This document shows, one piece after another, positions 3,985 to 60,600 of a DNA stretch of 60,600 bases. The notes beneath the pieces are model-generated. The model was given only the letters and a program-made list of their open reading frames with translations, made no database searches and was not told the DNA's origin. A program made the translations under genes and the position numbers. This DNA comes from a virus (Duplodnaviria; Caudoviricetes): positions 1-60,600 of the IMG/VR virus record IMGVR_UViG_3300033402_000013; one strand, given 5' to 3'. Position 1 is the stretch's first letter, and each line of letters starts with the position of its first letter.

Positions 3985-5388
3985 TTACTGACCCGAGGTG
4001 ATGGCAACCTCGCGCTTGTAGCGCGCGAGACCGCCAGTCGTCACGTCGGTGCGGAGCGGCCAGTCGCCGATGAACTTCCAGCTCGCCGACACGAGGTCCT
4101 GCAAGCGGTTGAGCGGCGAGCGGATGATCAGCTGCACGCGGTCCGTGTTGACCTCGATGCCGTTGTTCGTGATCGACGAGCTGCCCACCTTGCCGGTGAT
4201 ACCAGCCTCGGTGATGAGCGCACCGAGGTCCTGGTAGTACTCGTAGATCGCGCCCTGAGCAACGAGCAGCGTCTCGTGGAGCGGCGTGCCGGTCGTTGGG
4301 TTGCCGTTCGAGTAAAACTCGCCGGCATACGGATCGTTGAGCGAGAAGGTCTGGCCGTCCTTCGGGTAAACCGTCTCGGGCAGCGGGCACTCCGAGTTGC
4401 GGAAGACCACCGTACCGAGCAGCTCGCCGAGCGCGAACTGCTTGTACATGAAGTAGTCCGGCAACGAGGTCAGCAGGCGCTGGAACTCGGGATCGGAGAA
4501 GACCTGCCCCTGCGCGGTCGGGTCCATGTGCATGTGGAACCGGCCGTCGGGCATCTCCGGCACGTTCTCCTGCCAGAAGTAGGAGACCGCCGTGCGGATC
4601 GCGGCGAGCGTCATCAGGTCCGTCGGACCGATGTCGTTCACGCTGTGGCCACCGCCGACGTACACGATCTGCGATGCGTCGAAGGAGATGACCGGGTCTC
4701 GGTTGTTCACGGTTGCCGCCGTGCCGAGCGTCAGCGTGCCCGGTCCGATCTCGTCACCTGGGTTGTTCGACGTGTACCCGACCACCGTGTTCTGGGTGTA
4801 GACACCGTTCGTCACGGTGTAGATCTGAAGCGGGTTGTTCGTCGAGACCGTCGTGAACTGGACGGGCGAGCCCATCGGCAGGTCAGGACGGCGAGCGCGC
4901 GTGAAGCCGTTGAGGCGCTGGACCGCGAGGGTCGTGGTCGCAGCCTGCGCGCCGTTCGCAACGGTGTTGCCCGAGAGGGCAGCGTTGTAGAGACGATCAC
5001 GCACGATGCGGTTCATCGACTGGCCAGAACCCAGGCCGAGCTGCTGCGCGTTGCGCAGCATCAGGTTCGCGATCGCCACGATGCTGGTCGGCATGTGCGT
5101 GTCGATCGTGTCCGCGTACTGCTGCAAGGTCGCGGTCCACTGCTCGACCTGATACGTCGAGGGAGTCGGATCGCTACCGGGGACGAGAGGCTGGAGCTTC
5201 GGCGCCATCAGGCCGACGCCCGTGAACACCATGCTGTCGCCGACGTTGTTCGGCCATAGCTGAGGCATCGCTTCACCACGGAACAAGATCCGTGGATAGA
5301 GCGCATCATGGAAGGCTCGCTCTAGCAGGCCTTCCTGAACGATCGCCCGGATTTCGGGTGATTGGGCAATGGTGCTGAAATCGGGCAT
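3985..5388 (-). CDS. Major capsid protein (HK97 fold)
   Basis: 467 aa, strongly biased codons, CAGGAG SD, directly after the scaffold gene; EQWTATLQQYADTIDT and HMDPT-type segments typical of capsid proteins. Confidence 0.85.
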   Translation of the reverse strand: MPDFSTIAQSPEIRAIVQEGLLERAFHDALYPRILFRGEAMPQLWPNNVGDSMVFTGVGLMAPKLQPLVPGSDPTPSTYQVEQWTATLQQYADTIDTHMPTSIVAIANLMLRNAQQLGLGSGQSMNRIVRDRLYNAALSGNTVANGAQAATTTLAVQRLNGFTRARRPDLPMGSPVQFTTVSTNNPLQIYTVTNGVYTQNTVVGYTSNNPGDEIGPGTLTLGTAATVNNRDPVISFDASQIVYVGGGHSVNDIGPTDLMTLAAIRTAVSYFWQENVPEMPDGRFHMHMDPTAQGQVFSDPEFQRLLTSLPDYFMYKQFALGELLGTVVFRNSECPLPETVYPKDGQTFSLNDPYAGEFYSNGNPTTGTPLHETLLVAQGAIYEYYQDLGALITEAGITGKVGSSSITNNGIEVNTDRVQLIIRSPLNRLQDLVSASWKFIGDWPLRTDVTTGGLARYKREVAITSGQ

Positions 5389-5431
5389 CGTGTTCTCCTG
5401 CTACGGCAGAGCTAGCTGCCGAGAAAGCCTC

Positions 5432-6268
5432 TCACATATGAGGGTTGAGGCCAAGACTCTTGAGTCTGGCTTGTACGTCCTCGGGTTTGGCAGTTCGTGC
5501 GTCGAATTGGTTCGTCTTCGCCGCTTCCACGGCCGGGGCACCGGCTGGGGGCACCTTCGGATCGGATCCGTCCGGCTTCGCGCCGTTGGTCCCGGTCGTG
5601 GCGGGCTGCACCCTCTCGCCGAAGAGGTACGGTCGCTCCTTGCGGACACCCTCGAAGAACTTCGTTCGGTCGAACGCCGCGATCTCCTCTTCGGACTTCC
5701 CCGCGAGCTCGCGGGTCAGGAGCCGAAGCCCGTAGTCGACGTCCGTGACGCCGAGTCTGTACATCTCCTCTCGGAGAGCCATCTCGGCTTCCTTGGCGTC
5801 GAGCTGGCGCTGCACGTCGCGACGAAGCTTCTCTTCGCGACGCCACTGCTTACGCATCTTCGTGCGCTCGTCAGCAAGACGAGCGTTCTCAGATGCGGCA
5901 GCGGTGGGCTTGGCGGCGGGCTTGGGATCGGGTTTCTTCGGCATGGCGGGGACCTCCACAGGTTGGATCGATTGAACAGGTGCTTGCGGTGCGGGCGGCT
6001 TCTTCTGTGCCTTGACGAACTCTTCGAGGGAGTCGTATCCGGCTACCAAGGCGAGGGACTCGAGTTCTGCGGTTGCCTCGCGGCGTCCGCGCTCTCGTGC
6101 TTCTTCCTTGATCCGTTTGAAGTCGCTGTGCTTGACCTGTAGAACCTTTCCATCACCGTTCGAGGGCTCCTCGCCTACTGGTGCGATCACCGGAGGGTCG
6201 GTCGGCTGAACGGTGGCCTTGGGGTCTGGTACCTTGGGAGCTGGATCGTTCTCTGTCGGGTCTGGCAT
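5432..6268 (-). CDS. Capsid scaffolding protein
   Basis: Coiled-coil and Pro/Ala/Glu-rich, with KERPYLF motif and short C-terminal helix, immediately upstream of the capsid gene. Confidence 0.75.
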   Translation of the reverse strand: MPDPTENDPAPKVPDPKATVQPTDPPVIAPVGEEPSNGDGKVLQVKHSDFKRIKEEARERGRREATAELESLALVAGYDSLEEFVKAQKKPPAPQAPVQSIQPVEVPAMPKKPDPKPAAKPTAAASENARLADERTKMRKQWRREEKLRRDVQRQLDAKEAEMALREEMYRLGVTDVDYGLRLLTRELAGKSEEEIAAFDRTKFFEGVRKERPYLFGERVQPATTGTNGAKPDGSDPKVPPAGAPAVEAAKTNQFDARTAKPEDVQARLKSLGLNPHM

Positions 6269-6386
6269 GGCGCTTCCGAGTTCACCGACTATTGACCGCC
6301 GTCGTGGCGTGGTTGTCGGCGCCTGCTAGTTGAGGGTTGATGGATAGGGCGAAGAATCCTTGGCTCGCAACACGAGCCGGAGATGA

Positions 6387-6842
6387 TTACGGAGCGCCTC
6401 CGAAGGCGTCGTAGGTCGTCGTCATCGGAGTGTAGGAGCGCGGCATGTACTCGATCGTGAATGCCGTCACTGCGCTCGGGAAGGTGATCGTGGTCCCATC
6501 ATCCGAGATGAGGGCGATACCTGGACCGGATGCGCCGGGCGCGCTGGCAGTGCCACCCGCGTCGGTCACGATATACACTGCGGCGGCCGAGCGCAGTGTG
6601 CTGATCAAGAGCGCTGCGAGCCGATTCGGATTCGAAGGACCCGTGGTCTCGCCAGTCGCATCGATCTCCGTCAGGTTCTGAGTCGCCGAGGACGCCAGCC
6701 CTGTGAAGATCCGCTTGAGCGGCGTGAGCATCGTGCCGAGGTGGATGAGAGCAAGCAGGTCGTCAGTCTGACCGGGGCGCGCTTGATCAAGCGCGCTCTG
6801 AATCGTGACTGGCATCGTGGTAGTCGCGAAAGGTGTGGCCAT
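6387..6842 (-). CDS. Hypothetical virion protein (decoration-like)
   Basis: T/A/G-rich 151 aa, CAGGAG SD, in head module. Confidence 0.5.
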   Translation of the reverse strand: MATPFATTTMPVTIQSALDQARPGQTDDLLALIHLGTMLTPLKRIFTGLASSATQNLTEIDATGETTGPSNPNRLAALLISTLRSAAAVYIVTDAGGTASAPGASGPGIALISDDGTTITFPSAVTAFTIEYMPRSYTPMTTTYDAFGGAP

Positions 6843-6892
6843 GGGGACGATCTCCTGTGGGAGCTGGTGTTACTACAAGTAGAGACCCGGAG

Positions 6893-7282
6893 TCACGTCT
6901 TCTCGCCAAGGAAGACGGAGACGTTGGTGAGAGTGGCTGGAGTCCGGGTCAGACTCACTGCCGTGATAGGGACCGTCCGAGAGATCAGCTGAAGGTAGCC
7001 GTCACACGGGAAGGACTGCGAGGTCCCTGCGGCCGATGTGACAGTCACCGTGATAGGCCTATCGGACTGAATGATCAGAACGTTGCAGTTCGTAACACCA
7101 CCGAAGTTGACGGCAACAGGGGTGTCGACTGTCAGCTGAGACGGTTCGAGGTTCTTCGCGTCGAGCGTGACGTACTCCTGCATCGGTGTTGGACCGATCG
7201 GAGCAGCGCCCGAACGCAGAAGACCTCCGTCCTGTGGATACGTGCTCCACTGGCCGGAGATCCTGAACAGGTCAGTCGGCAC
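6893..7282 (-). CDS. Hypothetical beta-rich virion protein
   Basis: 129 aa T/V-rich ORF in head module. Confidence 0.5.
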   Translation of the reverse strand: MPTDLFRISGQWSTYPQDGGLLRSGAAPIGPTPMQEYVTLDAKNLEPSQLTVDTPVAVNFGGVTNCNVLIIQSDRPITVTVTSAAGTSQSFPCDGYLQLISRTVPITAVSLTRTPATLTNVSVFLGEKT

Positions 7283-7291
7283 GAAGTCGTC

Positions 7292-7477
7292 TTACTTCGT
7301 CGGGCCGAGACGGAAGGGGCTGGGGTCGGTACCTGCCGGCGATTCGTTCGGCAGGTGCGGTCCCGGAGAGACGTTGTCGGAGTAGCGCCCGTTCTTCTGA
7401 TCGTACTTGACGATCGGCTCGGGGGCTGCTTGACCCTGGCCAACGCCAGAGACGAGTTCATCATTCGGAGAGGGCAT
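7292..7477 (-). CDS. Small Pro/Gly-rich protein, PF[KR]LG family copy 3
   Basis: MPSPNDELV...DPSPFRLGPTK; CAGGAG SD. Confidence 0.6.
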   Translation of the reverse strand: MPSPNDELVSGVGQGQAAPEPIVKYDQKNGRYSDNVSPGPHLPNESPAGTDPSPFRLGPTK

Positions 7478-7496
7478 CGTAGAGCTCCTGTGAGTG

Positions 7497-7721
7497 TTAC
7501 TGGCCGAGCTTGAACGGGGTGGCCGGGTTGACCGGAGGACCTGGGTCCTTGGTGTGCGCGGTGTCCGCGCCGTAGTTGCCGCCAGCGGCATCCGCTGGGG
7601 TGCCTGCTTGCGGGTTGTACGGTCCAGCCGCGTTGTCGGGGAAGCCCTCGCGAGCTGCACCGATCTCGAGCGCGCGGTTGCGCGAGCTGCGAAGGTTGCC
7701 TGGTGACGGTTGTGGCTTCAT
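7497..7721 (-). CDS. Small Pro/Gly-rich protein, PF[KR]LG family copy 2
   Basis: MKPQPSPG...NPATPFKLGQ; GGAGG SD. Confidence 0.6.
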   Translation of the reverse strand: MKPQPSPGNLRSSRNRALEIGAAREGFPDNAAGPYNPQAGTPADAAGGNYGADTAHTKDPGPPVNPATPFKLGQ

Positions 7722-7722
7722 C

Positions 7723-7950
7723 TCAGAGGCCTCCGAGCTTGAACGGATCGGGGTTGGTTCCGGTCGGGTAGTCGTCCGTCGGAGCTTCGTCACCCATAGC
7801 CGTTCCCGGATCGAACTGCAAGGGCTCGAGCTTCCCGTCCTTCACTGGCTGTGCAAAGCGATCACGGTCGTTGTAGTCCGCACCTTCATAGAAGTTCGGA
7901 TCGCGGACAGAGACGCCTGGCAAGCGCAGGTATCGAAGATCCTGCTTCAT
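7723..7950 (-). CDS. Small Pro/Gly-rich protein, PF[KR]LG family copy 1
   Basis: MKQDLRY...TNPDPFKLGGL; start could be further upstream at 7986. Confidence 0.55.
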   Translation of the reverse strand: MKQDLRYLRLPGVSVRDPNFYEGADYNDRDRFAQPVKDGKLEPLQFDPGTAMGDEAPTDDYPTGTNPDPFKLGGL

Positions 7951-7982
7951 TCCTTGAAGCCTACGTGTGTGGTGCCCATGTG

Positions 7983-8591
7983 TCAACGTCCTCGAATCAA
8001 CGACAGGACTTCGGCCCGAGCGGAGGCATCCTCACGGAAGAATCCGAGCATGCACGAGGTGGTTGTGAGTACTCCCCGCTTGCTCACGCCTCGAGTCGAC
8101 ATGCACTCATGTTCGGCTTCGATCACGACGCAGACGCCTCGAGGTTTGAGCACCTCTTGGATCGCATTGGCGATCTGCCGAGTCATGGCCTCTTGCACCT
8201 GAAGTCGCTTGGCGTAGCCATCGACTACGCGAGCAAGCTTCGAGAGACCGACGACACGATCGGCTGGCAAGTAGCCGACGTGGGCCTCGCCAAGGATCGG
8301 AACGAGATGATGCTCGCAATAGCTCTCGAACTGGATGCCACGAAGTAGAACAATCTCGTCGTAGCCTTCTGTGTCCTCGAAGGTCTTCTCGAGATGCTTT
8401 CGAGGGTCCTCGTTGTAGCCACGGAAAAACTCTTCGTAGGCACGGACGACTCGCTCTGGGGTCTCTTGCAGTCCGTTGCGCGAGGGATCATCTCCAGCCC
8501 AACGCAGCAAGGTCCGCACAGCCTCTTCGGCTTCGGCGCGAGTCACACCGCCGTGTGATGTGACTCGGTGAGCTCGCACCGGAGCAACCAT
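7983..8591 (-). CDS. folE: GTP cyclohydrolase I
   Basis: [35 protein letters not shown] and HECMSTRGV motifs. Confidence 0.97.
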
Positions 8592-9235
8592 CAGACGGTC
8601 TTGCCGTCATGAACAGCCGGAGGCGTGCCGTCGTCTGGATTCATCGAGGCCCCATCACCGTCGTCGCCAGGGTTCTCCTCGTCATCATCCTCGTCGTCTT
8701 CCTCGTCCTCGTCATCCTCGAGATCAGCCGGATCGACCTCCTCGGCAGCATGAGCGGCGAGCAGCTTGAGGTACGTGCAGACGAGGTTGGTGTCCGCATC
8801 CTCGGTGTCGCCGTCGTGGCCATCGAGGAGAGCCACGGTCACATCGTGGCAGTCCTCGTCGCTCAGCTTGGAGACGTACTTGGCCAGCGCATGCTGGATC
8901 TCTTCCGGCATGCGGTCGAAGGAGTCCTCGATCTCCTTCATGGCCTCGTCAGGAACCTTGGCGAGAAGCAGGTCGCCGCCGATCTCGTGTGCAGCATCGA
9001 CGATCTCGCCAGCGTCCTCTTTGAGGTGAGCGCCGAGAACACCCCAGGATGAGATCAGCTCGTTGCCATGTTCCTTGGGATCGCCAGACGGGGCGCCATC
9101 GCCCTCGTCGTCCTCTTCGTCGAGATCATCATCGTCATCACCACCGACCTGCATAGATGGGTTCGTGAGCGCAGCCATGCCGGGATTGGTGGAGTGCGAG
9201 TCGACGAGGGACTTGAGCTTGCTGGGGTTGACCAT
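8591..9235 (-). CDS. Highly acidic hypothetical protein
   Basis: Two long D/E tracts flanking a helical core; CAGGAG SD; stop overlaps the folE start. Confidence 0.7.
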
Positions 9236-9266
9236 TTGGGTCTCCTGTTCTTAGGTGAGTACCACG

Positions 9267-10247
9267 TCAGGGGGATCGCCGCCTAGGTGGCTTCACATCG
9301 ACCTTTTGCCCGCCGACGATGCGCCAGCCTGGAACGTCCCAGCCTGGGCGCCAGGCCTGGATTACGGCCCGATCGTGAGGACGATTTGGGGGGTGTGCCC
9401 ATGATTTGTGCAGCAAGCCCTTCGAGACCTTGCTAGTCCCCCACCGAGTCTCGACTTCGATTTCGTGAGCGTCAGGAGGCATCTTGAAGAGGCCTCCCGG
9501 CTTCACCACCTGGCCGTGGAGAGCAACAGAGTCAGCACCTACGCGATCGTCAAGCGGCTCGAGGGAGTCATCGTCAACGAGCTCCGTCCACCGCATGTAC
9601 ATATCGTCGATCTCTTGTGCTGTCTCCTCGATCGCATCTCGATGAGTCGCGTTGTAGGCCCACGCTTGCTCCGTGCGAACGATGCGCTCGGCTTTCCACC
9701 ACTCGACGTCGGCAGCCTTCGCCACGCGCTCGACAGCCTCGCCAGTGCTGGCACCCGTTGCGAGCGCGATGCTCATCTCCTGCTCGATCTTCTTCACAAC
9801 ACCAGCGCCGTAGCTGGCCATGCTCTGCTTGTTTTGTTTCAGCAGCGAGGTCTTGCGCTTGTCGATGATGCCGTGAAAGCGAGAGGCCTCTTCGATTGGC
9901 AGGCGGATGACTCCACCTTCGCCGACCTTCTTCTCGAGCTGCTTGATGTTCTTGATCAGGCCTCGGAGAGCATCCGTCTGCGTTTCAATCGTCGCAGCTG
10001 CACTCGCGTTGCCGAGCTGGCGAGCGATGTCCATCTGTCCCTGTCGGACTTGAGCGAGCAGTGTTCGGTGTTGCAGGACCGTGAACGGAGATGAGCCTCG
10101 ACCAATGTGCGCGGTGATCTTGTGTTCGAGCTCGGCCTGAGCTTGGTCGTAGAGCCTCTTCAAACGAGCCACACCACCACGATCGATGAGCCGGTTCAGG
10201 GCTTTGATGTGGTTGACAGAGATCTCTTGGAACGCGCTCGCCATCAC
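9267..10247 (-). CDS. Head morphogenesis protein (SPP1 gp7/Mu gpF-like)
   Basis: AERIVRTEQAWAYN, DDRV...LHGQV and HPPNRPHDR motifs. Confidence 0.85.
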   Translation of the reverse strand: MMASAFQEISVNHIKALNRLIDRGGVARLKRLYDQAQAELEHKITAHIGRGSSPFTVLQHRTLLAQVRQGQMDIARQLGNASAAATIETQTDALRGLIKNIKQLEKKVGEGGVIRLPIEEASRFHGIIDKRKTSLLKQNKQSMASYGAGVVKKIEQEMSIALATGASTGEAVERVAKAADVEWWKAERIVRTEQAWAYNATHRDAIEETAQEIDDMYMRWTELVDDDSLEPLDDRVGADSVALHGQVVKPGGLFKMPPDAHEIEVETRWGTSKVSKGLLHKSWAHPPNRPHDRAVIQAWRPGWDVPGWRIVGGQKVDVKPPRRRSP

Positions 10248-10669
10248 CGCTCCGTGATGTACTCGGCGTATTCGATCAGCTGCGCGTTGTCGATGACAAC
10301 ACCACCGATGTTGTTGAACGCGTAGAGCACAAGCTGCGAGTAGATCGCTGCATAGTTCACAAGGAAAACGTACGTACCAGGCGAGGGAATCGGCTGCAAC
10401 GTTCCGCCGAGGAGACCTGGATTGTTCGTGTCGTAGACCTGCGCCCAGCCGAGGTCGACTTGATCTAGAATCACTACACGAACGAAAGCTGCAAACTGGA
10501 TCGAAGTTCCACCAGAGAGCTCGAGGAAGATGCCAAGCGTTCGCGGTCGAACGTTCGCATAGACCGCTGTCCCATCACCAAAGTAGCTCAGGTCTGCGCC
10601 TGTTACCGTGTCGTCTGGTGGAGACGATACGATCGGAACAGGCTCAACCTTACCGCGAAGCTGGCGCAT
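10244..10669 (-). CDS. Hypothetical virion-associated protein
   Basis: 141 aa beta-rich ORF coupled to the gp7-like gene. Confidence 0.5.
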   Translation of the reverse strand: MRQLRGKVEPVPIVSSPPDDTVTGADLSYFGDGTAVYANVRPRTLGIFLELSGGTSIQFAAFVRVVILDQVDLGWAQVYDTNNPGLLGGTLQPIPSPGTYVFLVNYAAIYSQLVLYAFNNIGGVVIDNAQLIEYAEYITER

Positions 10670-10692
10670 TCAAGACCTCGGCGAGCCCGAGG

Positions 10693-11064
10693 TCAGGCCA
10701 CGCAGCCGATCTCACCCTCGAAGTCGACCGTCAGTGCGGAGTTCGATCCGGCCGACATGGTCAAGAAGTCGGCCACGTTGAGCACGAGTGATCCGTTCCA
10801 GTCGAGGTAGCTGTTCGCTCCGACGGGAGTGGACTGCCACGCGAACTCGGTGCCGGCCGCGCCAACGCCGGTCGCTCCGATCCACGCGGAGACCGCAACA
10901 GATGCGGCTGTCTTGTTTGTCACGCGGATGTGCGTCAGCCGGATGAACGTGTTGGTCGGAGGAGATGCGTTCACGCCACCAGTCAAGGTCGGCGGGTTGA
11001 GCATGTTCGCGATCGACGTGGTGATCGCGGTTGGGCCTGAACGAAACGGTGCGTTGCTAGACAT
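10693..11064 (-). CDS. Jelly-roll-like virion protein
   Basis: GAAGGAG SD; pattern similar to the N-terminal domain of 13388-14644. Confidence 0.55.
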   Translation of the reverse strand: MSSNAPFRSGPTAITTSIANMLNPPTLTGGVNASPPTNTFIRLTHIRVTNKTAASVAVSAWIGATGVGAAGTEFAWQSTPVGANSYLDWNGSLVLNVADFLTMSAGSNSALTVDFEGEIGCVA

Positions 11065-11092
11065 GGTGCTCCTTCGAGGTGGCTACAGTATC

Positions 11093-11878
11093 TCAGAATT
11101 GCACGTACTCAAAGGTCCCCAAGCTCGTGTCCGAAGTCGCCGAGACTGGATGCGAAATCATCTCGATGAGATCTGGACCTTGAACTGCGAGCGGGACCTG
11201 GAACTGATGCTCGCGCTGATCTCCAGCTGGGTGTAGCAGAGTCGGCCCGATCTGTGTCAAAGGTTGATTGGTGAGGCTTGGGTTTCCATGCCGCACAAGG
11301 GACATCGTGCCGAGCACGCCATAGGCAGCAGCAGCCATCGACGTGATGTAGCAGGTCACGCCGGCTGGGACGTAGTGCGCAGCCCAGAACGTCATGTTGT
11401 CGCCGACGCCGCTGTTCACCGCGATAGAAGCCCAGACTGATCCACTACCAGCGGTCCCTGTGTAGAGTGAGATCGTTCCCAGGTTGGTTCCGCTAGAGGT
11501 ACCAGTCTGGGTCACCACCATGCTCTCGACGTACAGAATGTCCGTCCCGACGGTATTAACAGGTGTCGTGCCGTTGAGGGTGATGAGCTCGCTCTCAAGA
11601 ACGAAAGCGCTGGTGAGATACGTCAGCATGATCTGCTGCGCACCAGTCCCGGCCGCCGTGTCGTTGGCGGAGCTCGAGGCTACACTGCGTTGACCAGTCA
11701 CGGTCTGAGGTGTGTATGTCGTTGCTCTGATCGTTTTGTTCGAAGCCGCACTCGTGGCGGTATAACCAGTCGCCCGGCCAGCTATCGGTGGAGCCGCGTT
11801 ACCTTCGGCAAGAAACCCAGCGACAAGAGCTTGCCGCCAATCGACGACGATCGTATTTCCCCAGTTGTCACTAGCCAT
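11093..11878 (-). CDS. Hypothetical virion protein
   Basis: SSSANDTAAGTGA...ITLNGTTPV motif seen in phage structural proteins; T/A/G-rich. Confidence 0.6.
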   Translation of the reverse strand: MASDNWGNTIVVDWRQALVAGFLAEGNAAPPIAGRATGYTATSAASNKTIRATTYTPQTVTGQRSVASSSANDTAAGTGAQQIMLTYLTSAFVLESELITLNGTTPVNTVGTDILYVESMVVTQTGTSSGTNLGTISLYTGTAGSGSVWASIAVNSGVGDNMTFWAAHYVPAGVTCYITSMAAAAYGVLGTMSLVRHGNPSLTNQPLTQIGPTLLHPAGDQREHQFQVPLAVQGPDLIEMISHPVSATSDTSLGTFEYVQF

Positions 11879-11887
11879 GATGTGCCC

Positions 11888-13372
11888 TTATTCGAAGTAA
11901 CCGTCTACGAAGATCGAGCCGCGTGTAACACCTGGGGTCCCGGCCGCGCTCGTGATGAAGACCTTGTATGCGAAGTGTAGGTACGTGCCTGGCAAGCAGA
12001 GGATGGGCACCTGCGGAGCCCACGTGAATGGTCCGCCAGCTATTGGAGTACCTGCGGTCGATCCACCACCCGTGTAGAGCGTGACACCAGCCGCTTGCGT
12101 GATCGATGTGTAGTAGTGATTGAGCCCGACAGGAAAGCGTTGTCCGCCACCTGTCGAGATGTTGCCGCCGACGTTGTTCGCGATGACAAGCCATTCGAGG
12201 AATGGCAGGCCAGTAACACTGATCGCCGTGGTGACGACTGGCAGCGAAAACGTCAGGCCCTTGAGGTAGAACGAGTAGGGTGATGGGATCTGAAATCCGA
12301 ACACGGAGAGTGGGTTTTCACTCGCAACCGTGAGCGCCACCGCGTAGTCACCACCGAGGGCGTTGTATCCAGCTACGGTGTTCGACGGCGTCTCCGTCGT
12401 GGGCGCGGCAGTCATCGCGCTGCCGGTCTGGGCGTACGTCGTCGGGTTGATGGACGCCTGGCGCATCATGGACGACAGCTGTTCGCCCCATGGCTTGGCA
12501 AACAACGCGTCCAGTATCTGGACCGAATGCGATGCCAGCTTGAGCTGGATCGCAGTTCCGCCACCCGTCGTGTCTGTGTACACGCGTGCGAACGATGGGA
12601 TGTGGCTGACCGAGAACGTGTAGGCCGTCGCGGTTGGAATACGGAGCGTTGTGTCAACGATCGGCGTGCCGGTCGAATCGGAGACAATGAACCGAGCAAA
12701 GTCGTCGTCTACGATCACATCATAGTAGAGGAAACTCGTCGTGCTGATCACACCTTGGGCGACCAAGGTGGCCGACACGTTCTCGGTGCCGTTGTAGCTC
12801 GTCACTGCGACGAGGTTGCCGGCTGCGGTCCACCTGAAGAACGCACCGGTCGGGATCACGGCAGTCACGCCAGTTGGAGCACCAAAGCCAAGCTCGACCA
12901 GCGTGTGGTTTGACGCCACGTTGGCCGTGATGTTTGCCCGGAACCGACAGAAGATCGGATTGCGCGGATACTTCGGGAACTGGCGCTGGCTCGTGATGAT
13001 CGCGTCGGTGCTCGCCGTCGTGATACTGCTGTTGTTCAGCGTCAGGACGCCGGTCGCCTGCGCCGCAGTCATCGTCGTCAGAGACTGAGTCCAGAATCCG
13101 TTGATCGTCGAACCCTCGAACGCGTCCTGCCAGAGCACGATCTCGCTGGTTGATCGAAGCGTTGCAAACTCACCTACGCGCGGGATGCGCAGAACCGAGT
13201 CGCCGTCGATACCCATCGGTGGCAGTCCCGAAATCGGTACCGTCGGGACGGTCTTGTTTTGATAGACCAGCGGATTACCGAACTGGTCGTAGAGCCTGAC
13301 CTGCGCTGAGCCATTCGCGTCAACGGTCTGGCCTTGCGTCGGGGTAGTTTTATCTACAAGGTTAACGCCCAT
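11888..13372 (-). CDS. Large beta-rich virion/fibre protein
   Basis: 494 aa T/G/S-rich with lectin-like appearance, next to the collagen genes. Confidence 0.6.
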   Translation of the reverse strand: MGVNLVDKTTPTQGQTVDANGSAQVRLYDQFGNPLVYQNKTVPTVPISGLPPMGIDGDSVLRIPRVGEFATLRSTSEIVLWQDAFEGSTINGFWTQSLTTMTAAQATGVLTLNNSSITTASTDAIITSQRQFPKYPRNPIFCRFRANITANVASNHTLVELGFGAPTGVTAVIPTGAFFRWTAAGNLVAVTSYNGTENVSATLVAQGVISTTSFLYYDVIVDDDFARFIVSDSTGTPIVDTTLRIPTATAYTFSVSHIPSFARVYTDTTGGGTAIQLKLASHSVQILDALFAKPWGEQLSSMMRQASINPTTYAQTGSAMTAAPTTETPSNTVAGYNALGGDYAVALTVASENPLSVFGFQIPSPYSFYLKGLTFSLPVVTTAISVTGLPFLEWLVIANNVGGNISTGGGQRFPVGLNHYYTSITQAAGVTLYTGGGSTAGTPIAGGPFTWAPQVPILCLPGTYLHFAYKVFITSAAGTPGVTRGSIFVDGYFE

Positions 13373-13387
13373 CGATGTGCTCCTATC

Positions 13388-14644
13388 CTACTGCCATCGC
13401 CAGTTGACGGTGAATGCTCCGTACATCTGTTCGAGCGTGCACGCAAGGTAGATGGTGAAGCCAGTACCTGCCACAATATCGCCAGCTGTCACGCCGAGCT
13501 CAGCTGCAAGAATCTTGATCTCATCCTCTGAATGATCAGCTGTTGCTGTCAGAGCAATCCATGCCTCGACATTCGAGGTCAACAGGATTCCTGTCTGTCC
13601 GGTGATCGTTGTCGATACCGGACCGTTGTTCCACGTCGAACCGAACGTAACAGTCGCTGAACCGACAGTGACGGTCGAACCTGACGTACCGGCTGGACCT
13701 TGAGGACCAGGAGGGCCTTGATCGCCATCTTCACCGTCAAGCCCAGGAGGACCCGGCACACCCTGAATGCCTTGAATGCCCTGCGGACCTTGAGCACCTT
13801 GAGCACCTTGCAGGCCTGGCGGTCCTTGATCACCGTCCTCACCGTCGAGTCCTGGTGGGCCTTGGTTGCCTTGTTGGCCTTGAGCACCGGTTGCTCCGGT
13901 CAGCCCCTGAATACCGGGCGGGCCTTGATCGCCGTCGTTACCGTCGTCGCCTTGTGGACCAGGAATACCTTGAAGACCTTGCGCACCCTGAAGGCCTGGT
14001 GTGCCAGGCGGACCTTGGTCACCATCCTCACCATCTAGGCCAGGTGGTCCTTGATTGCCTTGCAGACCTTGAGTGCCTTGTACACCTTGAAGACCTTGCA
14101 GACCTTGCGGGCCTTGATCACCATCGGCACCATCATCACCCTGCGGTCCCGGCACACCCTGCACACCCTGGATGCCTTGCGGTCCTTGAATACCAGGAGG
14201 ACCTTGATCACCATCCTCGCCCGGCTCGCCTTGCGATCCTTGATTGCCCTGCTGGCCTGTCGGTCCTTGGTTGCCAACGGTCTGCAAGCTGCCGTTCGAG
14301 TCGTAGACACGCCAACCATCTTGATCCATCGTCGCCCAGCCATTAGCTGGGATCGTGAACGAACCAGTGATCTGATTAGCCGCTGCGGTACCACCGACAA
14401 AGATCGAGACGCCGGTTGCTGCGATACCTGTCGTGTTCGCGAGATGGATCGTCTTGATGAGTGATGTGTATGGATATGCTGGCGCTGTGTAGATCGTCGC
14501 TACTGAGGTCAGTAGAACACCTTGCGCAAGCACGTGGTACAGCGGATCGCCTTGAGCAACCTCTGCGCCAGTGATCGTATACGTGACTGGTGAGAGCACG
14601 CTCGAAACGCCAGCGATCGTTCCAGATGATGGAAGCGTCAGCAT
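13388..14644 (-). CDS. Collagen-like fibre protein with N- and C-terminal globular domains
   Basis: Central uninterrupted Gly-X-Y run of about 200 aa. Confidence 0.9.
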
Positions 14645-39018: not shown

Positions 39019-39646
39019 CGGCCATGCCTCGTAGAGCCTCTAACACAAAGGCTTCGCGGTTGTCTCCAGCTTCTGAGAGTAGCTCCTCGATCTCGAGGGC
39101 TTCGTTACCTTCGAAGTCGACACGAACCCGAAGCATCGGACTGGCCTTCTCTTCAGGACTCGGCGCAGGCCTCGGGTCCACCTTGGGTGTGCTCGAGAAG
39201 CTGAAGTCGATCTTGGACGTCAGCATGTTGAGCTCAGCAGCCGAGTACGGCAGTGGCTGCAAGGCCTCAGCAGCATCAGCGTAGCCGCTGATCTCGCGCA
39301 CGAGGTCTGCTAGGCGAGCCTCGTCGGGAGCACCGCCAAGCTCGTTGAGAACGATCGTCATCTCTCGAGCTCGTGCGTCGGATACCGAGCCGAGGTTGAT
39401 GCATGGGACGGCAGTCATGCCCAAGAGCTTGGCTGCGCGCCAGCCATGCTCACCATCGATGATCTCCTTCGTTCCATCTGTGTGCGTGCGCACAAGCAGA
39501 GGTCTCGCGAAGCCATGACGACGGATGGACGCGGCGAGCTTCGAGAAGGTCTTGTCGCTCTGCGTGTTGTAGTTCCATGGGTTGGGCTTGAGGTCCGCAA
39601 CCGGGATCAGCTCGGGTGTTCCCCGAATGCCATGGGTGTCAGCCAT
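39005..39646 (-). CDS. ParB-like N-terminal domain protein (paralog of 38365-39018)
   Basis: PNPWNYNTQ...IRRHGFARPLLV...IIDGEHGW. Confidence 0.88.
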   Translation of the reverse strand: MADTHGIRGTPELIPVADLKPNPWNYNTQSDKTFSKLAASIRRHGFARPLLVRTHTDGTKEIIDGEHGWRAAKLLGMTAVPCINLGSVSDARAREMTIVLNELGGAPDEARLADLVREISGYADAAEALQPLPYSAAELNMLTSKIDFSFSSTPKVDPRPAPSPEEKASPMLRVRVDFEGNEALEIEELLSEAGDNREAFVLEALRGMADVGA

Positions 39647-40520
39647 TGATCGACTCCATGAGGATCTGAAACGTCACAGCTCCAACGCCCACGCACTCGT
39701 TGTAGTCGAGCGAGGCCTGGGACTTGTCAGCAGCTTGCTGTCGTGAGCGGGTCTGTGCGAAGCCTTCGCGCCAGCGATCGTGTTCGACAATCCATTTGCG
39801 CCACGCATCGAACTTCGGGCTGTAGGCGCTCACGCCTTTGAGGTTGCCGCGCTCGAGGACGTACGAGTTGCCAAAGCGCCCGCCGCTGTACCAGCTGGTC
39901 GAGTCCGCTGAGTACGCTGGCAAGCGCAGGAGGTCGGCCTCGGTGCAGCCGAGAAGATGGACCTTGCGAGAGCCAGCCTCCTTCGCGATCGCCAGCAGCT
40001 CCGCCAGCGCACGCTTGACCTTCACACCGCCCGAGCTCGGAGTCTTGTAGAAGACGCGAAGCTCAGGCACCGAGAGGGCGATGTACTCGTTCTTGGCTAG
40101 CGCCTTGAGACCTTCGATGCCCTCGGGAATGTGCCAGACGTAGATCACCGTGCCGATGTAGTCGCTGAAGACTTCCTCGCGGATGCGCATGCACTCTTCG
40201 ACGCCAAGCACGCGCTGCACATCACATTCGACGATCGGATGCTTCCAGCCCCAGCGCTCGACGTTCTCGCGGTACTTGAGCGCGTAGTCGCGGTACTCAT
40301 CGAAGGTGGAGATCTTCCCCTTGTGTGCACCAAACATCAGCGAGTAGAGACCAGAGTCGAGGATCCACTCGGAGCCATCGTCACAGGTGCGCAGGACCGC
40401 GTCACACTTGATCTTGTCTTCGATCATGTAGTAGTAGGACGCAAGCCTGTACGGGTACTTGAGGTCCTGAAGAATGTCGGCCCATGGTCTATGCTCGGCC
40501 GATGCTAGATGAACTCTCAT
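39639..40520 (-). CDS. dpdA: DNA-guanine transglycosylase (DpdA/TGT-like)
   Basis: ILDSGLYS, VYVWH, VHLLGCT and YSADSTSW motifs of the TGT fold; lies inside the que cluster; ATG at 40520. Confidence 0.75.
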   Translation of the reverse strand: MRVHLASAEHRPWADILQDLKYPYRLASYYYMIEDKIKCDAVLRTCDDGSEWILDSGLYSLMFGAHKGKISTFDEYRDYALKYRENVERWGWKHPIVECDVQRVLGVEECMRIREEVFSDYIGTVIYVWHIPEGIEGLKALAKNEYIALSVPELRVFYKTPSSGGVKVKRALAELLAIAKEAGSRKVHLLGCTEADLLRLPAYSADSTSWYSGGRFGNSYVLERGNLKGVSAYSPKFDAWRKWIVEHDRWREGFAQTRSRQQAADKSQASLDYNECVGVGAVTFQILMESING

Positions 40521-41149
40521 GGGAAGCGCCTCGCGATCCAGAGCACAGCATAGCTCAGCGGTGTGCCAAGCGGTGCGGCTGAGATCTTCACGCAGTACTG
40601 TCCGATTGCCATCGGGATGAGCGCCGACATGGGAACGATCCCACCGAAGGCGATGAGGATGAAGATGCCAGTGTCGACGGCCTGGCTGATGACGGTCGAT
40701 CCATTCTTGCGCAGCCAGAACGCTTTCTCCTTGGTCAGCTTCCTCAGCACGTGAAAGATCTCTACGTCGAGCAGACTGGAGATCAGATAGGCCACCGTCG
40801 AGCCCAGCACCACGCGCCACGTGATGTCGAACACTGATCGGAAAGCACCGTCGTTCACACCGAGAGGCGAGGCTGGGATCACATTGGCTAGTGCGATGGT
40901 CCCGACGAGTAAAGCGTTCGAGAGTGCTCCCATCCAAACCACAGCTCGCGTTGTCCGTCGGCCGTAGAGCTCGTTGACGATGTCCGTCGTCAGGTACACG
41001 ATCGGGATGGCCACAGCTCCACTCGTCACATGCACGCCGAAGACGACGAACAGGCGAGCAGCCACTGCATTCGCCGAGACGATGGCGCCAAGGTAGAGTG
41101 CGATCAGGACTGCAAGCGCTGGCCTGATGTGTAGCTCATGCCCGATCAT
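40517..41149 (-). CDS. yhhQ: Queuosine-precursor transporter (VUT/YhhQ family)
   Basis: Multi-TM protein; YLTTDIVNELYG, AYLISSLLDV and WLRKNGSTVISQAVDT. Confidence 0.92.
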   Translation of the reverse strand: MIGHELHIRPALAVLIALYLGAIVSANAVAARLFVVFGVHVTSGAVAIPIVYLTTDIVNELYGRRTTRAVVWMGALSNALLVGTIALANVIPASPLGVNDGAFRSVFDITWRVVLGSTVAYLISSLLDVEIFHVLRKLTKEKAFWLRKNGSTVISQAVDTGIFILIAFGGIVPMSALIPMAIGQYCVKISAAPLGTPLSYAVLWIARRFP

Positions 41150-58380: not shown

Positions 58381-58680
58381 CCCTACCCCAGGACCTAGGA
58401 TCTCGAAAGATGACGCGCTGGAACATTCGCAACTATTTCATAACTCTGCGATTTTATAGGTGATCTTTTTTATCTTTTGGGTGTTGGCAAAAAATGTGGA
58501 TGGGTGATGCTGTTCTTGGGTCGGCGGAAAGGGGAAGGGGAGGCGGGGCGGGCGGGGCAGGGGGGACGATGATCTCTGAAAGCTGAATACCTCGATCGCT
58601 ACGCGGCAACGCCGAACGGTACGCCACCATCGTGGGGCCTAGTACTCGCCACTGTCGCCAGCTACACGGATCGAGGCTCA
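58381..58680. promoter_or_regulatory. Divergent control region with an AT-rich tract (58431-58497) and a G-run tract (58531-58565)
   Basis: Non-coding gap where the coding strand switches; abrupt compositional anomalies. Confidence 0.6.
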
Positions 58681-58682
58681 CT

Positions 58683-58731
58683 ACTGCACTGATGAGCCCG
58701 GAAGGGCGAAACGTTGTAGGACGTATGCAGT
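58683..58731 (+). ncRNA. Hammerhead ribozyme 1 (type I)
   Basis: ACUGCA-CUGAUGA-GCCC(GGAA)GGGC-GAAA-CGU(UGUAGG)ACG-UA-UGCAGU: full core, three stems, GUA cleavage triplet (cut after 58725). Confidence 0.93.
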
Positions 58732-58772
58732 TAACGATCTCCACCACCACATCACACGAAAGGCAAACCACC

Positions 58773-59087
58773 ATGTCGCACAACACCAACAAGTTTCTCA
58801 CCCTCACCGACGCTGGCCTCGAGATGGTCCTGGCCGAGGGCTCGGACGTTGACAAGGTCCTCGCCGGCTCGCTGCGCGCCGAGCCGCAGTACGGCCCGGA
58901 CGCCTCGCACCGCACCGTCAAGGGTACGCGGAAGTTTCAGTGCAACGCGCCGGTCGCTTTCGAGGTGTGCATGGCCAAGATCATGCGCGCCAACGACTTC
59001 GAGAAGGAAGGCCAGGCCATCCGCCTGGTGCTCGCCGAAGGCCTGAAGGCGCTTGGCTTCGATGTCGAAATCGACGAAGAAGTCTGA
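58773..59087 (+). CDS. Putative ribbon-helix-helix DNA-binding protein flanked by ribozymes
   Basis: ATG 58773 after GAAAGG; C-terminal RKFQCN-APVAFEVCMAKIMRAN-EGQAIRLVLAEGLKA has a strand-helix-helix pattern. Confidence 0.6.
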   Translation: MSHNTNKFLTLTDAGLEMVLAEGSDVDKVLAGSLRAEPQYGPDASHRTVKGTRKFQCNAPVAFEVCMAKIMRANDFEKEGQAIRLVLAEGLKALGFDVEIDEEV

Positions 59088-59090
59088 CCT

Positions 59091-59140
59091 GCTGCACTGA
59101 TGAGGCCGGAAGGCCGAAACGCCCCCGAGGCGTATGCAGC
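59091..59140 (+). ncRNA. Hammerhead ribozyme 2 (type I)
   Basis: GCUGCA-CUGAUGA-GGCC(GGAA)GGCC-GAAA-CGCC(CCCGA)GGCG-UA-UGCAGC: full core, GUA triplet (cut after 59134). Confidence 0.93.
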
Positions 59141-59164
59141 TCCACCATCACGAAGGAGACCACC

Positions 59165-59392
59165 ATGAAGACCAAGAACAAGCCGATCGTGTTCGTCACC
59201 GAGTCGGACGAGGGCGGCACGATCGTCACCGTCGCGAATCCGCGTTTCGCTTCGCGGGCTGCGCAGGCCTTTGACTCCGTCAACGATCTAGTGCGGCCGG
59301 CAGTCGGCGAGTTCACCGTGCCGTGGAACACCTACCGGACCACGAGCGCGTTGATCGCCGCTGGCTTCACCGTCAAGGTCGTCGAGTCGTAA
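59165..59392 (+). CDS. Small hypothetical protein
   Basis: GAAGGAG SD, MKTKNKPIVFV..., 75 aa. Confidence 0.7.
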   Translation: MKTKNKPIVFVTESDEGGTIVTVANPRFASRAAQAFDSVNDLVRPAVGEFTVPWNTYRTTSALIAAGFTVKVVES

Positions 59393-59424
59393 CACCTTCC
59401 CCACCACCACGAAGGAGACCACCA

Positions 59425-60009
59425 ATGAGCTACGAAGCTGCCCCTGCCACCACCATGCTCGCCACGCACTGCGCGATCTGCAACCGTCCGTTGCTGGACG
59501 CGTTCTCCGTCGAGGTCGCCATCGGCCCCATCTGCCGCCAGCGCCATGGGTACGATGAGGAGCTCGCTGCACTCGGCGAGGACGCGCGCGTCGCGGCGAA
59601 TCGCATCATTCACCAGATCGCGGTGCACCGCGAGGACGAGCAGCTCCGTGCGGACGGTTGCGCGGCGCTGCGCGTGATGGGTTTCAAGAAGCTGCCCGAC
59701 CGGATCGAGTACCGGGGCAAGGACGCACCGAAGGGCGATGGCGTCGTCATCGAGGAGCACGTGCTGCCCCCGTTCGTCGGCCGCTGGCGGACCTTCCCCG
59801 CCGTGACGGGGTATCTCGTGCGTGCGCCGTACCGCCCGTCTGCGGTGGCCGCGTTCCGCAACATCCCTGGCCGTCGCTGGCTGCGCGAGGCGAAGGCCAC
59901 CTTCGTACCGGCCGGCGAGCGCAAGTCCCTCTGGCAGCTACTGAAAGTCCACTATGCGGGGTTGACTATCACCACCGCGTCGGGGACCACTGTCATCCCT
60001 ACCGTGTAA
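59425..60009 (+). CDS. DUF6011-like Zn finger plus HARP-like domain protein
   Basis: CAICNRPLLD..S...IGPIC and PYRPSAVAAFRNIPGRRW...K..FVP; GAAGGAG SD. Confidence 0.65.
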   Translation: MSYEAAPATTMLATHCAICNRPLLDAFSVEVAIGPICRQRHGYDEELAALGEDARVAANRIIHQIAVHREDEQLRADGCAALRVMGFKKLPDRIEYRGKDAPKGDGVVIEEHVLPPFVGRWRTFPAVTGYLVRAPYRPSAVAAFRNIPGRRWLREAKATFVPAGERKSLWQLLKVHYAGLTITTASGTTVIPTV

Positions 60010-60114: not shown

Positions 60115-60600
60115 ATGGCGACCAAGAAGAACCCCGCACCTGCACAGCCCCCCACGAAGCCCGCTGCCAAGGCAGCCCCAGCTCCTGACCCGGTCGACGA
60201 TCTCGAGGACGAGGTCGATGATGCCGAAGGCGATCTCGAAGACGAGGACGATGGCGAGCCGAACGGTGCCAAGTCCCGTAACTGGCTCAAGACGCAGCGC
60301 CTGCCCGCGCCTAAGCGCGAGGCGGTGCTCATCGCCAACATCGTGAACAAGACCGCGCGCCGCGCTGGCGTGATCGAGGACTGGCCTGGGGACGAGCTTG
60401 TCGGCATCCGCAAGCAGCTGTCGGCCGCCATCGACTCGATGAAGGCAGCGGCCGATGCGCTCGCAAAGCTGCCCGACAGCTACAAGGCGCGCGTCCCGCA
60501 CGCCCGCAAGAGCGGCGGTGCCGAGCTGGCGCCCGGCTCGCTGCTCAGGATCACCGAGAAGCAGCTGGAGACCTACAAGGGGATCCTCGAGGACGACCAG
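60115..60600 (+). CDS. Hypothetical protein, partial (runs off the right edge)
   Basis: MATKKNPAPAQPP...DDLEDEVDDAEGDLEDEDD...; open to the end of the window. Confidence 0.7.
   Translation, partial: MATKKNPAPAQPPTKPAAKAAPAPDPVDDLEDEVDDAEGDLEDEDDGEPNGAKSRNWLKTQRLPAPKREAVLIANIVNKTARRAGVIEDWPGDELVGIRKQLSAAIDSMKAAADALAKLPDSYKARVPHARKSGGAELAPGSLLRITEKQLETYKGILEDDQ

Follow-up and report, generated by a model that had tools for sequence, protein, structure and literature searches.

Towards the end of a 60.6-kb stretch of tailed-phage DNA (hereafter the window), which constitutes the complete IMG/VR record IMGVR_UViG_3300033402_000013 and has an estimated completeness of 68%, two compact hammerhead ribozyme motifs, designated HH1 and HH2, bracket a single small gene, open reading frame (ORF) 1. 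This gene is the first of a set of plus-strand ORFs starting at position 58773, which encode proteins of 104 aa and 75 aa and a DUF6011 protein, followed by a fourth ORF that is still open at position 60600. The whole tested stretch is contained in DNA contigs of two peat-metagenome runs, one of which extends about 24 kb past the window, and consequently the plus-strand operon is longer than its visible part. DNA contigs of three peat-metagenome runs were also compared with the ribozyme region, revealing no joints and no variants over the ribozymes. The features of the locus are collected in Table 1.

Table 1. Features of the hammerhead-bracketed locus and of the remainder of the window (SD, Shine-Dalgarno sequence; MFE, minimum free energy; R1, covariance model described in the text; HTH, helix-turn-helix).
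Feature	Position	Strand	Basis or remark
HH1, type I hammerhead	58683-58731	+	Predicted cut between 58725 and 58726; sequence, MFE fold, descriptor, model R1
Gene 1 leader, 47 nt, C/A-rich	58726-58772	+	CCACCACCAC box and SD; repeat families D1 and D3
Predicted monocistronic product, 409 nt	58726-59134	+	Arithmetic from predicted cuts (59134 - 58726 + 1); carries SD and whole ORF 1
ORF 1, 104 aa	58773-59087	+	Small family, conserved TRK[YF]Q-CNAP, acidic C-terminus
HH2, type I hammerhead	59091-59140	+	Predicted cut between 59134 and 59135; sequence, MFE fold, descriptor, model R1
Gene 2 leader, 30 nt, strong SD (GAAGGAG)	59135-59164	+	Left after predicted HH2 cut
ORF 2, 75 aa, no known family	59165-59392	+	Would be first cistron of downstream cleavage product
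Third leader/SD box copy, before ORF 3, no hammerhead	59398-59424	+	Repeat search; no R1 match
ORF 3, 194 aa, N-terminal DUF6011	59425-60009	+	PF19474, E 8.5e-09
Divergent intergenic region	58381-58772		Precedes small plus-strand ORFs running to record end
Major head, portal, large terminase and tail fibre genes		-	Tailed-phage set
Family A DNA polymerase, DnaB-like helicase, UvsX-like recombinase, SbcCD-like proteins, SNF2-type helicase, HTH protein, ParB-N protein		-	Replication/recombination and others; Pfam/PHROG

HH1 and HH2 exhibit the same layout, comprising an open stem I of 6 bp, a CUGAUGA core, a 4-bp stem II capped by a GGAA loop, a GAAA segment, and a 5-bp stem III. The conserved core nucleotides (C3-U4-G5-A6-N7-G8-A9 and G12-A13-A14) are present in both elements, the pairs adjacent to the core (U-A, G-C, and A-U) are intact in both, and stem III includes the A15.1-U16.1 pair. 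The cleavage triplet is GUA in each copy, with A17 located at position 58725 in HH1 and at position 59134 in HH2, so that H17 is not G and U16.1 is in place. Both the folds and the descriptor place the two elements in the type I topology, with stem I open and stems II and III capped by loops. Furthermore, the three-way junction is the MFE fold as well as the centroid fold of each element, with -17.6 kcal/mol (z -2.5) for HH1 and -23.0 kcal/mol (z -2.6) for HH2. Sequence and folds thus agree with a first-pass annotation of this DNA, which had placed two canonical type I hammerheads at these positions, and HH1 and HH2 are very probably genuine hammerhead motifs.

The ATG codon of ORF 1 lies 41 nt past the end of HH1 and 47 nt past its predicted cut; counted from the last base of the ORF 1 stop codon, HH2 starts 4 nt downstream. 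The arithmetic of the first-pass annotation, in which a 409-nt product carries the 104-aa ORF, HH1 precedes the start codon by about 40 nt and HH2 follows the stop codon by 4 nt, therefore holds. At its predicted 3' end, this product keeps two hairpins of HH2, those of stems II and III. Over their 5' 33 nt, HH1 and HH2 are 91% identical (30/33), suggesting that they are probably recent duplicates. The compensatory changes that had been noted between the two copies do exist, although they amount to one flipped pair in stem II and, in stem III, a double change and a single one, a thinner record than had been implied. In both elements the last nucleotide of the GUA triplet and the first nucleotides of stem I spell AUG (58725-58727 and 59134-59136), and the predicted cuts would split both of these triplets. 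The database form of the ORF 1 protein (P0001) consists of 120 aa and starts at the first of them, composed of A17 and two stem I nucleotides; because this ATG would be split by the ribozyme cut, position 58773 is the better start of ORF 1.

Three tests exclude a fortuitous occurrence of two such motifs in the window. The pattern CTGATGA-N6-36-GAAAC was found at just these two sites on both strands of the 60.6 kb, against an expectation of 0.32. When the full type I descriptor was applied, it returned two matches in the window, whereas among 300 dinucleotide shuffles there were four with a single match and none with two. A covariance model, R1, was then built with viral contigs other than the window as the source of its 11 training sequences, all of them compact type I hammerheads; seven of the 11 had been retrieved via a pattern modelled on stem II and loop II of the window elements, and the other four, from a locus designated L014, had not. 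Run with filters off on both strands, and read with this caveat about its training set, R1 scored HH2 at 52.3 bits (E 1.9e-13) and HH1 at 52.0 bits (E 2.3e-13), the third best score in the window being 15.1 bits.

The search with Rfam hammerhead models that the first-pass annotation had proposed as a check gave no match in the window at gathering thresholds. In E-value mode, the core alone of the two elements matched RF00008, a type III model, with 23.4 and 21.9 bits, where the cut-off is 48.5. At gathering thresholds the curated models likewise pass over every hammerhead found in eight other phage loci, including 12 R1 matches in L014 as well as those in L007, L012, and L013. Consequently, the failure of the curated models reflects a limit of their coverage rather than a defect of the motifs.

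HH1 and HH2 belong to a wider class of phage hammerheads. A narrow pattern combining the core, a 4-bp stem II, and the GGAA loop was detected in 23 other IMG/VR contigs; in a set of species-representative bacterial genomes it was found in 6 contigs only, a count that is uninformative about the host. Across the 24 loci L003-L026, the descriptor recognised 31 type I hammerheads in 20 of them, and R1 yielded 36 matches at E<=0.001 in 25 sources, the window included. In the alignment of the 32 distinct rows, which was fitted to the model and is thus biased towards the structure, 93.2% of the cells are standard pairs, in comparison with 65.5% in column shuffles. When the pairing partners were slid by one to three columns, the paired fraction dropped to 25.5-44.0%, and double-sided changes were observed at 12 of the 15 pairs. 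The G10.1-C11.1 pair never varies, no other pair type was seen at A15.1-U16.1, and the core columns of the alignment with other phage hammerheads are invariant too. On account of the slid controls and of the number of covarying pairs, the helices of the class are secure despite the model-fitted alignment.

The position of these ribozymes relative to genes is equally characteristic. For this count, 34 of the 36 R1 matches were used, two partial ones being omitted, and identical contexts were collapsed to 31. In 21 of these 31 contexts the predicted cut falls at most 50 nt upstream of an SD and the start codon of an ORF with 40 aa or more; among 6800 positions drawn at random from the same strand of these loci, only 1129 (16.6%) are so placed. 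The cut-to-ATG distances in the window, 47 and 30 nt, are consistent with this placement. The most elaborate case is record G005, the source of locus L014, whose minus strand (approximately 5232-13466) has 13 R1 matches within about 8.5 kb. Most of the predicted cuts there fall 32-45 nt before an ATG with an SD box that is nearly the same each time. Of the ORFs located behind a hammerhead, at least six stop no more than a few nucleotides from where the next ribozyme starts. The L014 operon is made of stop-ribozyme-SD-ATG units, as is the junction at HH2; ten of its proteins were tested and gave no recognised function. The two motifs, their significance, their membership of a covarying phage class, and the position of that class close to SD and start codons are all direct observations.

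These data make transcript processing or insulation the likely role of HH1 and HH2, a reading favoured by the contrast between 21 of 31 contexts and 16.6% of random positions, by the tandem units of L014, and by the rarity among neighbouring hammerheads of the stem I compatibility discussed below. It had been the fallback idea of the first-pass annotation, and both the positional comparisons and the literature now favour it. As judged from the sequence, the two elements are likely to be active cis-cleaving type I hammerheads, one in the leader and the other in the first intergenic spacer of an operon that runs rightward and consists of small accessory genes, probably early ones. As the polycistronic RNA emerges, each ribozyme would fold locally and cut itself co-transcriptionally. 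The HH1 cut would strip the promoter-proximal leader, and the HH2 cut would part cistron 1 from cistrons 2 onward. Hammerhead cleavage leaves 5'-OH and 2',3'-cyclic phosphate ends. The downstream RNAs would begin with a 5'-OH and a short, C/A-rich, unstructured leader of 47 or 30 nt that contains the SD. At its 3' end, the 409-nt gene 1 message would have the HH2 hairpins and a 2',3'-cyclic phosphate. The likely gain is that neither upstream sequence nor the neighbouring cistron would then affect translation initiation or decay of a given cistron. We infer actual cleavage, the end chemistry in vivo, and an effect on stability or translation. A comparable arrangement has been engineered in RiboJ, an insulator in which a ribozyme derived from a plant satellite RNA and a hairpin are placed between the promoter or upstream RNA and the ribosome-binding site (RBS), giving a defined 5' leader and thereby freeing expression from the influence of upstream context. 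The mechanism of insulation would be alike in the two cases, whereas the window elements are natural compact type I hammerheads and their insulating effect is putative.

The leaders that cleavage would leave share a conspicuous architecture. The gene 1 leader is predicted to be almost unstructured, with an MFE of -2.3 kcal/mol for the leader plus first codons. The first three plus-strand genes all have upstream of them a C/A-rich box (58738-58750, 59139-59151, and 59398-59410) and, after it, GAAGGAG-ACCACC-ATG. Within the window, the box with its SD is confined to the plus-strand operon, and it also precedes the first gene of L027, a syntenic relative. This repeated box is a lineage-specific standard translation-initiation region. 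Its third copy, at ORF 3, occurs without a hammerhead, which shows that the box is a module for translation initiation in the operon and needs no ribozyme. A pairing between the stop region of gene 1 and the SD of gene 2 was seen in one short fold and was dismissed after it was lost in the ensemble calculation.

Arrangements of this kind have been published. PMC3088659 (Perreault et al. 2011) describes several hammerheads that flank single genes in prophages and proposes that they process transcripts into single-gene mRNAs; three tandem prophage arrangements cleaved in vitro at all sites, and the one from Agrobacterium did so in E. coli as well. The clusters of Agrobacterium tumefaciens (the ardA triple), Azorhizobium caulinodans, and Clostridium scindens resemble the window in that small genes stand singly between hammerheads of one strand, the flanked genes differ in identity from case to case, polycistronic processing was proposed, and circular RNA had already been raised. 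The window differs from them in the phage, a tailed phage from a peat metagenome, and in the flanked gene, a member of a 104-aa family. HH1 and HH2 are compact type I elements with a GGAA loop II and a GUA triplet, and close type I examples may exist in the supplements of PMC3088659. The same source describes a hammerhead of the haloviruses HF1/HF2 (HHphage) in an early transcript, 13 nt ahead of its first ORF and coincident with the mapped 5' end. HHphage is likewise a ribozyme in the first-ORF leader of an early transcript, a few tens of nucleotides or fewer from the start; it is described as a variant of core and structure adapted to high salt in an archaeal virus, whereas HH1 shows the full canonical form, is 47 nt away from the ATG, and has a partner ribozyme on the far side of the gene. 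Two reviews (PMC6155905 and PMC6765202) concur with PMC3088659 and regard the biological role of phage hammerheads as still open. Hence, the arrangement of hammerheads around a gene, as well as both hypotheses that have been attached to it, processing and circles, are already in print.

Several observations weigh against a processing role and have to be set beside the evidence for it. The helicase gene neighbouring the operon is common to six viral contigs (30-57% identity), and R1 at E<=1 detected no hammerhead in these six helicase-relative loci or in four related records that were searched whole. One of the latter, L027, retains the ParB-HTH-helicase synteny. It also has a divergent operon, in which another gene, of 88 aa, comes first and a homologue of the fourth ORF of the window comes next; L027 is devoid of ORFs 1-3 and of both ribozymes, yet it keeps the leader/SD box, and a scan of its syntenic leader with Rfam in E-value mode returned nothing relevant. 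Since the ribozymes are absent from relatives including L027, and ORF 3 also manages without one, they are dispensable for this type of operon. A promoter scan upstream of HH1 revealed only a weak, unconvincing sigma-70-like site inside the ParB-like gene. The predicted accessibility of the SD was 0.56-0.64 before and 0.66-0.67 after cleavage and was judged unchanged, so that unmasking of the RBS by cleavage was rejected. In addition, complementarity between loop II and the 3' flank that could form a Watson-Crick pseudoknot amounts to 3 nt in both HH1 and HH2, no better than in shuffles. As no pseudoknot is detectable, HH1 and HH2 may be slow "minimal" hammerheads at cellular Mg2+ concentrations. 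Complementarity of 4-6 nt, a likely pseudoknot, is found in 7 of 11 L014 ribozymes. Finally, where the host has RNase J, a 5'-OH end can make an RNA less and not more stable, as in the glmS system.

The distribution among relatives bears on an alternative in which the hammerheads would be inactive or neutral passengers that travelled with mosaic accessory cassettes and make no current contribution to fitness. It would account for the four related records, syntenic L027 among them, that proved free of hammerheads when searched whole, for a homologue of the flanked gene in locus L026 without a flanking hammerhead, and for the lack of a detectable tertiary-contact pseudoknot at HH1 and HH2. Every core nucleotide and all three stems are nevertheless intact in both copies, the compensatory changes keep stems II and III paired, neutral decay would quickly disrupt a 49-nt motif, and the position of the class relative to start codons is strongly non-random; we therefore regard mere passengers as improbable. 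The ribozymes are missing in the helicase relatives and in L026, and ORFs 1-3 are missing in L027; ribozymes and flanked genes thus belong to a variable, mosaic part of the operon, in agreement with the published remark that hammerhead-flanked phage genes are small, non-conserved, and of unknown function. In the comparison with related phages suggested by the first-pass annotation, the same arrangement was lacking in the helicase relatives and in L026; stop-ribozyme-SD-ATG units recur in L014.

Some of the same features could also be read as those of a regulated or down-regulating switch, in which cutting would be tuned by Mg2+, by a factor, or by competition with the folding of the long leader and would mark gene 1 or the downstream RNA for decay. 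When 80 nt of upstream context are included, the MFE structure of the HH1 region is indeed an alternative fold and not the hammerhead, and 5'-OH RNAs are substrates of RNase J in some bacteria. PMC3088659 also speculates on regulated cleavage by phage hammerheads. The window motifs are, however, minimal (49-50 nt) and carry no ligand-binding or extra domain, and no sequence feature separates a switch from constitutive processing. A switch of this kind is unlikely, and so is its corollary that the ribozymes would time the shut-off of early genes instead of stabilising messages.

Close to the 3' ends of the ribozymes, a further sequence feature was noticed. Many of the compact GGAA-loop type I hammerheads, among them examples in L003, L004, L007, L008, and L011, carry UAA(C/U/A) directly after stem I; HH1 has such a UAA(C) flank (58732-58735) and HH2 does not. 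The UAA flank could be a receptor for the GGAA tetraloop.

The first-pass annotation had favoured yet another outcome, a circular or re-ligated mRNA. In this scheme, the 5' end of the 409-nt product would pair with the stem I arm of HH2, and its ends would be joined either by the hammerhead rebuilt at the junction or by an RtcB-type ligase. The complementarity itself was confirmed: the 3' arm of HH1 stem I, i.e. the released 5' end, and the 5' arm of HH2 stem I can form six consecutive pairs, one of them G-U. The end chemistry of hammerheads suits RtcB, whose type of ligation needs no rebuilt ribozyme. Minimal hammerheads without tertiary contacts, on the other hand, favour cleavage over ligation. 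Moreover, with 30 of 33 nt identical, a shared stem I is most simply the outcome of a duplication, for which no selection is needed. Among the neighbouring hammerheads, at least four such cross-pairs were found in two of the ten adjacent pairs of L014 and in none of the single pair of L007. Ensemble prediction for the 409-nt product gives no junction pair a probability above 0.008, a weak argument since predictions for RNAs of about 400 nt are unreliable; the low probability of the junction helix arises because the HH2 arm pairs elsewhere in that ensemble.

Retrozymes and viroid-like RNAs do circularise in this manner. Like the window unit, they are delimited by two hammerheads of the same polarity, have ends able to re-form a hammerhead, and share the same end chemistry. 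They differ in being non-coding or replicon RNAs of eukaryotes, with tandem or long-terminal-repeat-like repeats and demonstrated circles. The window unit, in contrast, is a bacterial-type mRNA in a double-stranded DNA phage, known here from its sequence, and the re-formable junction is not conserved among neighbouring phage hammerheads. Circular or spliced products were considered in PMC3088659 and were not detected from such arrangements; likewise, our literature searches, which covered listings and abstracts as well as passages of PMC7761336, found no account of a DNA phage in which hammerheads give rise to circular RNAs. With duplication accounting for stem I, compatibility limited to two of ten L014 pairs, a junction helix at or below 0.008, and no circles detected in PMC3088659, the circular mRNA is unsupported, and we consider it very unlikely. 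If it were true, the matched stem I arms would be functional and would yield a circular, exonuclease-resistant, translatable mRNA, and this would be the first case of a DNA phage making a circular mRNA by means of ribozymes.

The family of the ORF 1 protein, the product of the flanked gene, comprised 15 library matches at E<=0.001, and 16 sequences were aligned. Neither Pfam, PHROG, nor PDB-sequence searches gave a match for the ORF 1 protein, and the ESM Atlas returned nothing usable. The AF2 (AlphaFold2) model, of medium confidence (pLDDT 75.1), predicts an N-terminal beta-hairpin and helix, followed by a strand (residues 52-54) and two helices (residues 63-74 and 79-93), and a Foldseek comparison of this model with the PDB gave no match at E<=0.001. 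The first-pass annotation had described the product as a ribbon-helix-helix (RHH)-like regulator. An RHH family was sought in Pfam for the 16 family members and none was found, even at E<=10. The sole hint is the beta-alpha-alpha topology of the C-terminal part of the model, which would be compatible with an RHH fold, and the label is a guess that the database searches do not bear out.

Homologues of the locus are scarce in the collections searched. Comparison with GenBank phages by blastn gave no match, single-protein scans of viral contigs with ORF 1 and ORF 3 found none, and the ORF 1 family profile A1 likewise had no match in viral contigs and genome contigs. In metagenome contigs, the profile recovered one locus, L026, where the ORF 1 homologue (within 500-1700) has an excisionase-like HTH ORF on one side, an integrase-like ORF on the other, and no flanking hammerheads. 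This context hints that the ORF 1 family may belong to lysogeny or regulatory modules, and it lends a little colour to the RHH guess.

Elsewhere in the window, three further observations were made. The divergent intergenic region upstream of HH1 harbours a G-rich tract with runs of 3-6 G (58520-58570, plus strand), and the syntenic intergenic region of L027 has a G-rich tract at the matching place, though the remaining leader is unalignable. This tract might be a regulatory or protein-binding site or might form a G-quadruplex. An ORF on the minus strand (39639-40937) matches a PHROG family of queuine tRNA-ribosyltransferases (E 1.2e-17), which suggests a putative 7-deazaguanine DNA-modification gene in the phage. 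A tRNA scan of the window returned zero tRNAs.

In summary, the locus opens no new category, and it represents a clean, minimal example of a leader ribozyme and an intergenic ribozyme placed around one small gene. The comparison across the class gives the processing or insulation hypothesis for phage hammerheads a quantitative footing, with cuts 30-47 nt before an SD and ATG and with operons composed of stop-ribozyme-SD-ATG units. Together with the 13-ribozyme contig, the value of this locus lies in providing a convenient test construct for the effect of self-cleavage on the stability and translation of phage mRNA.

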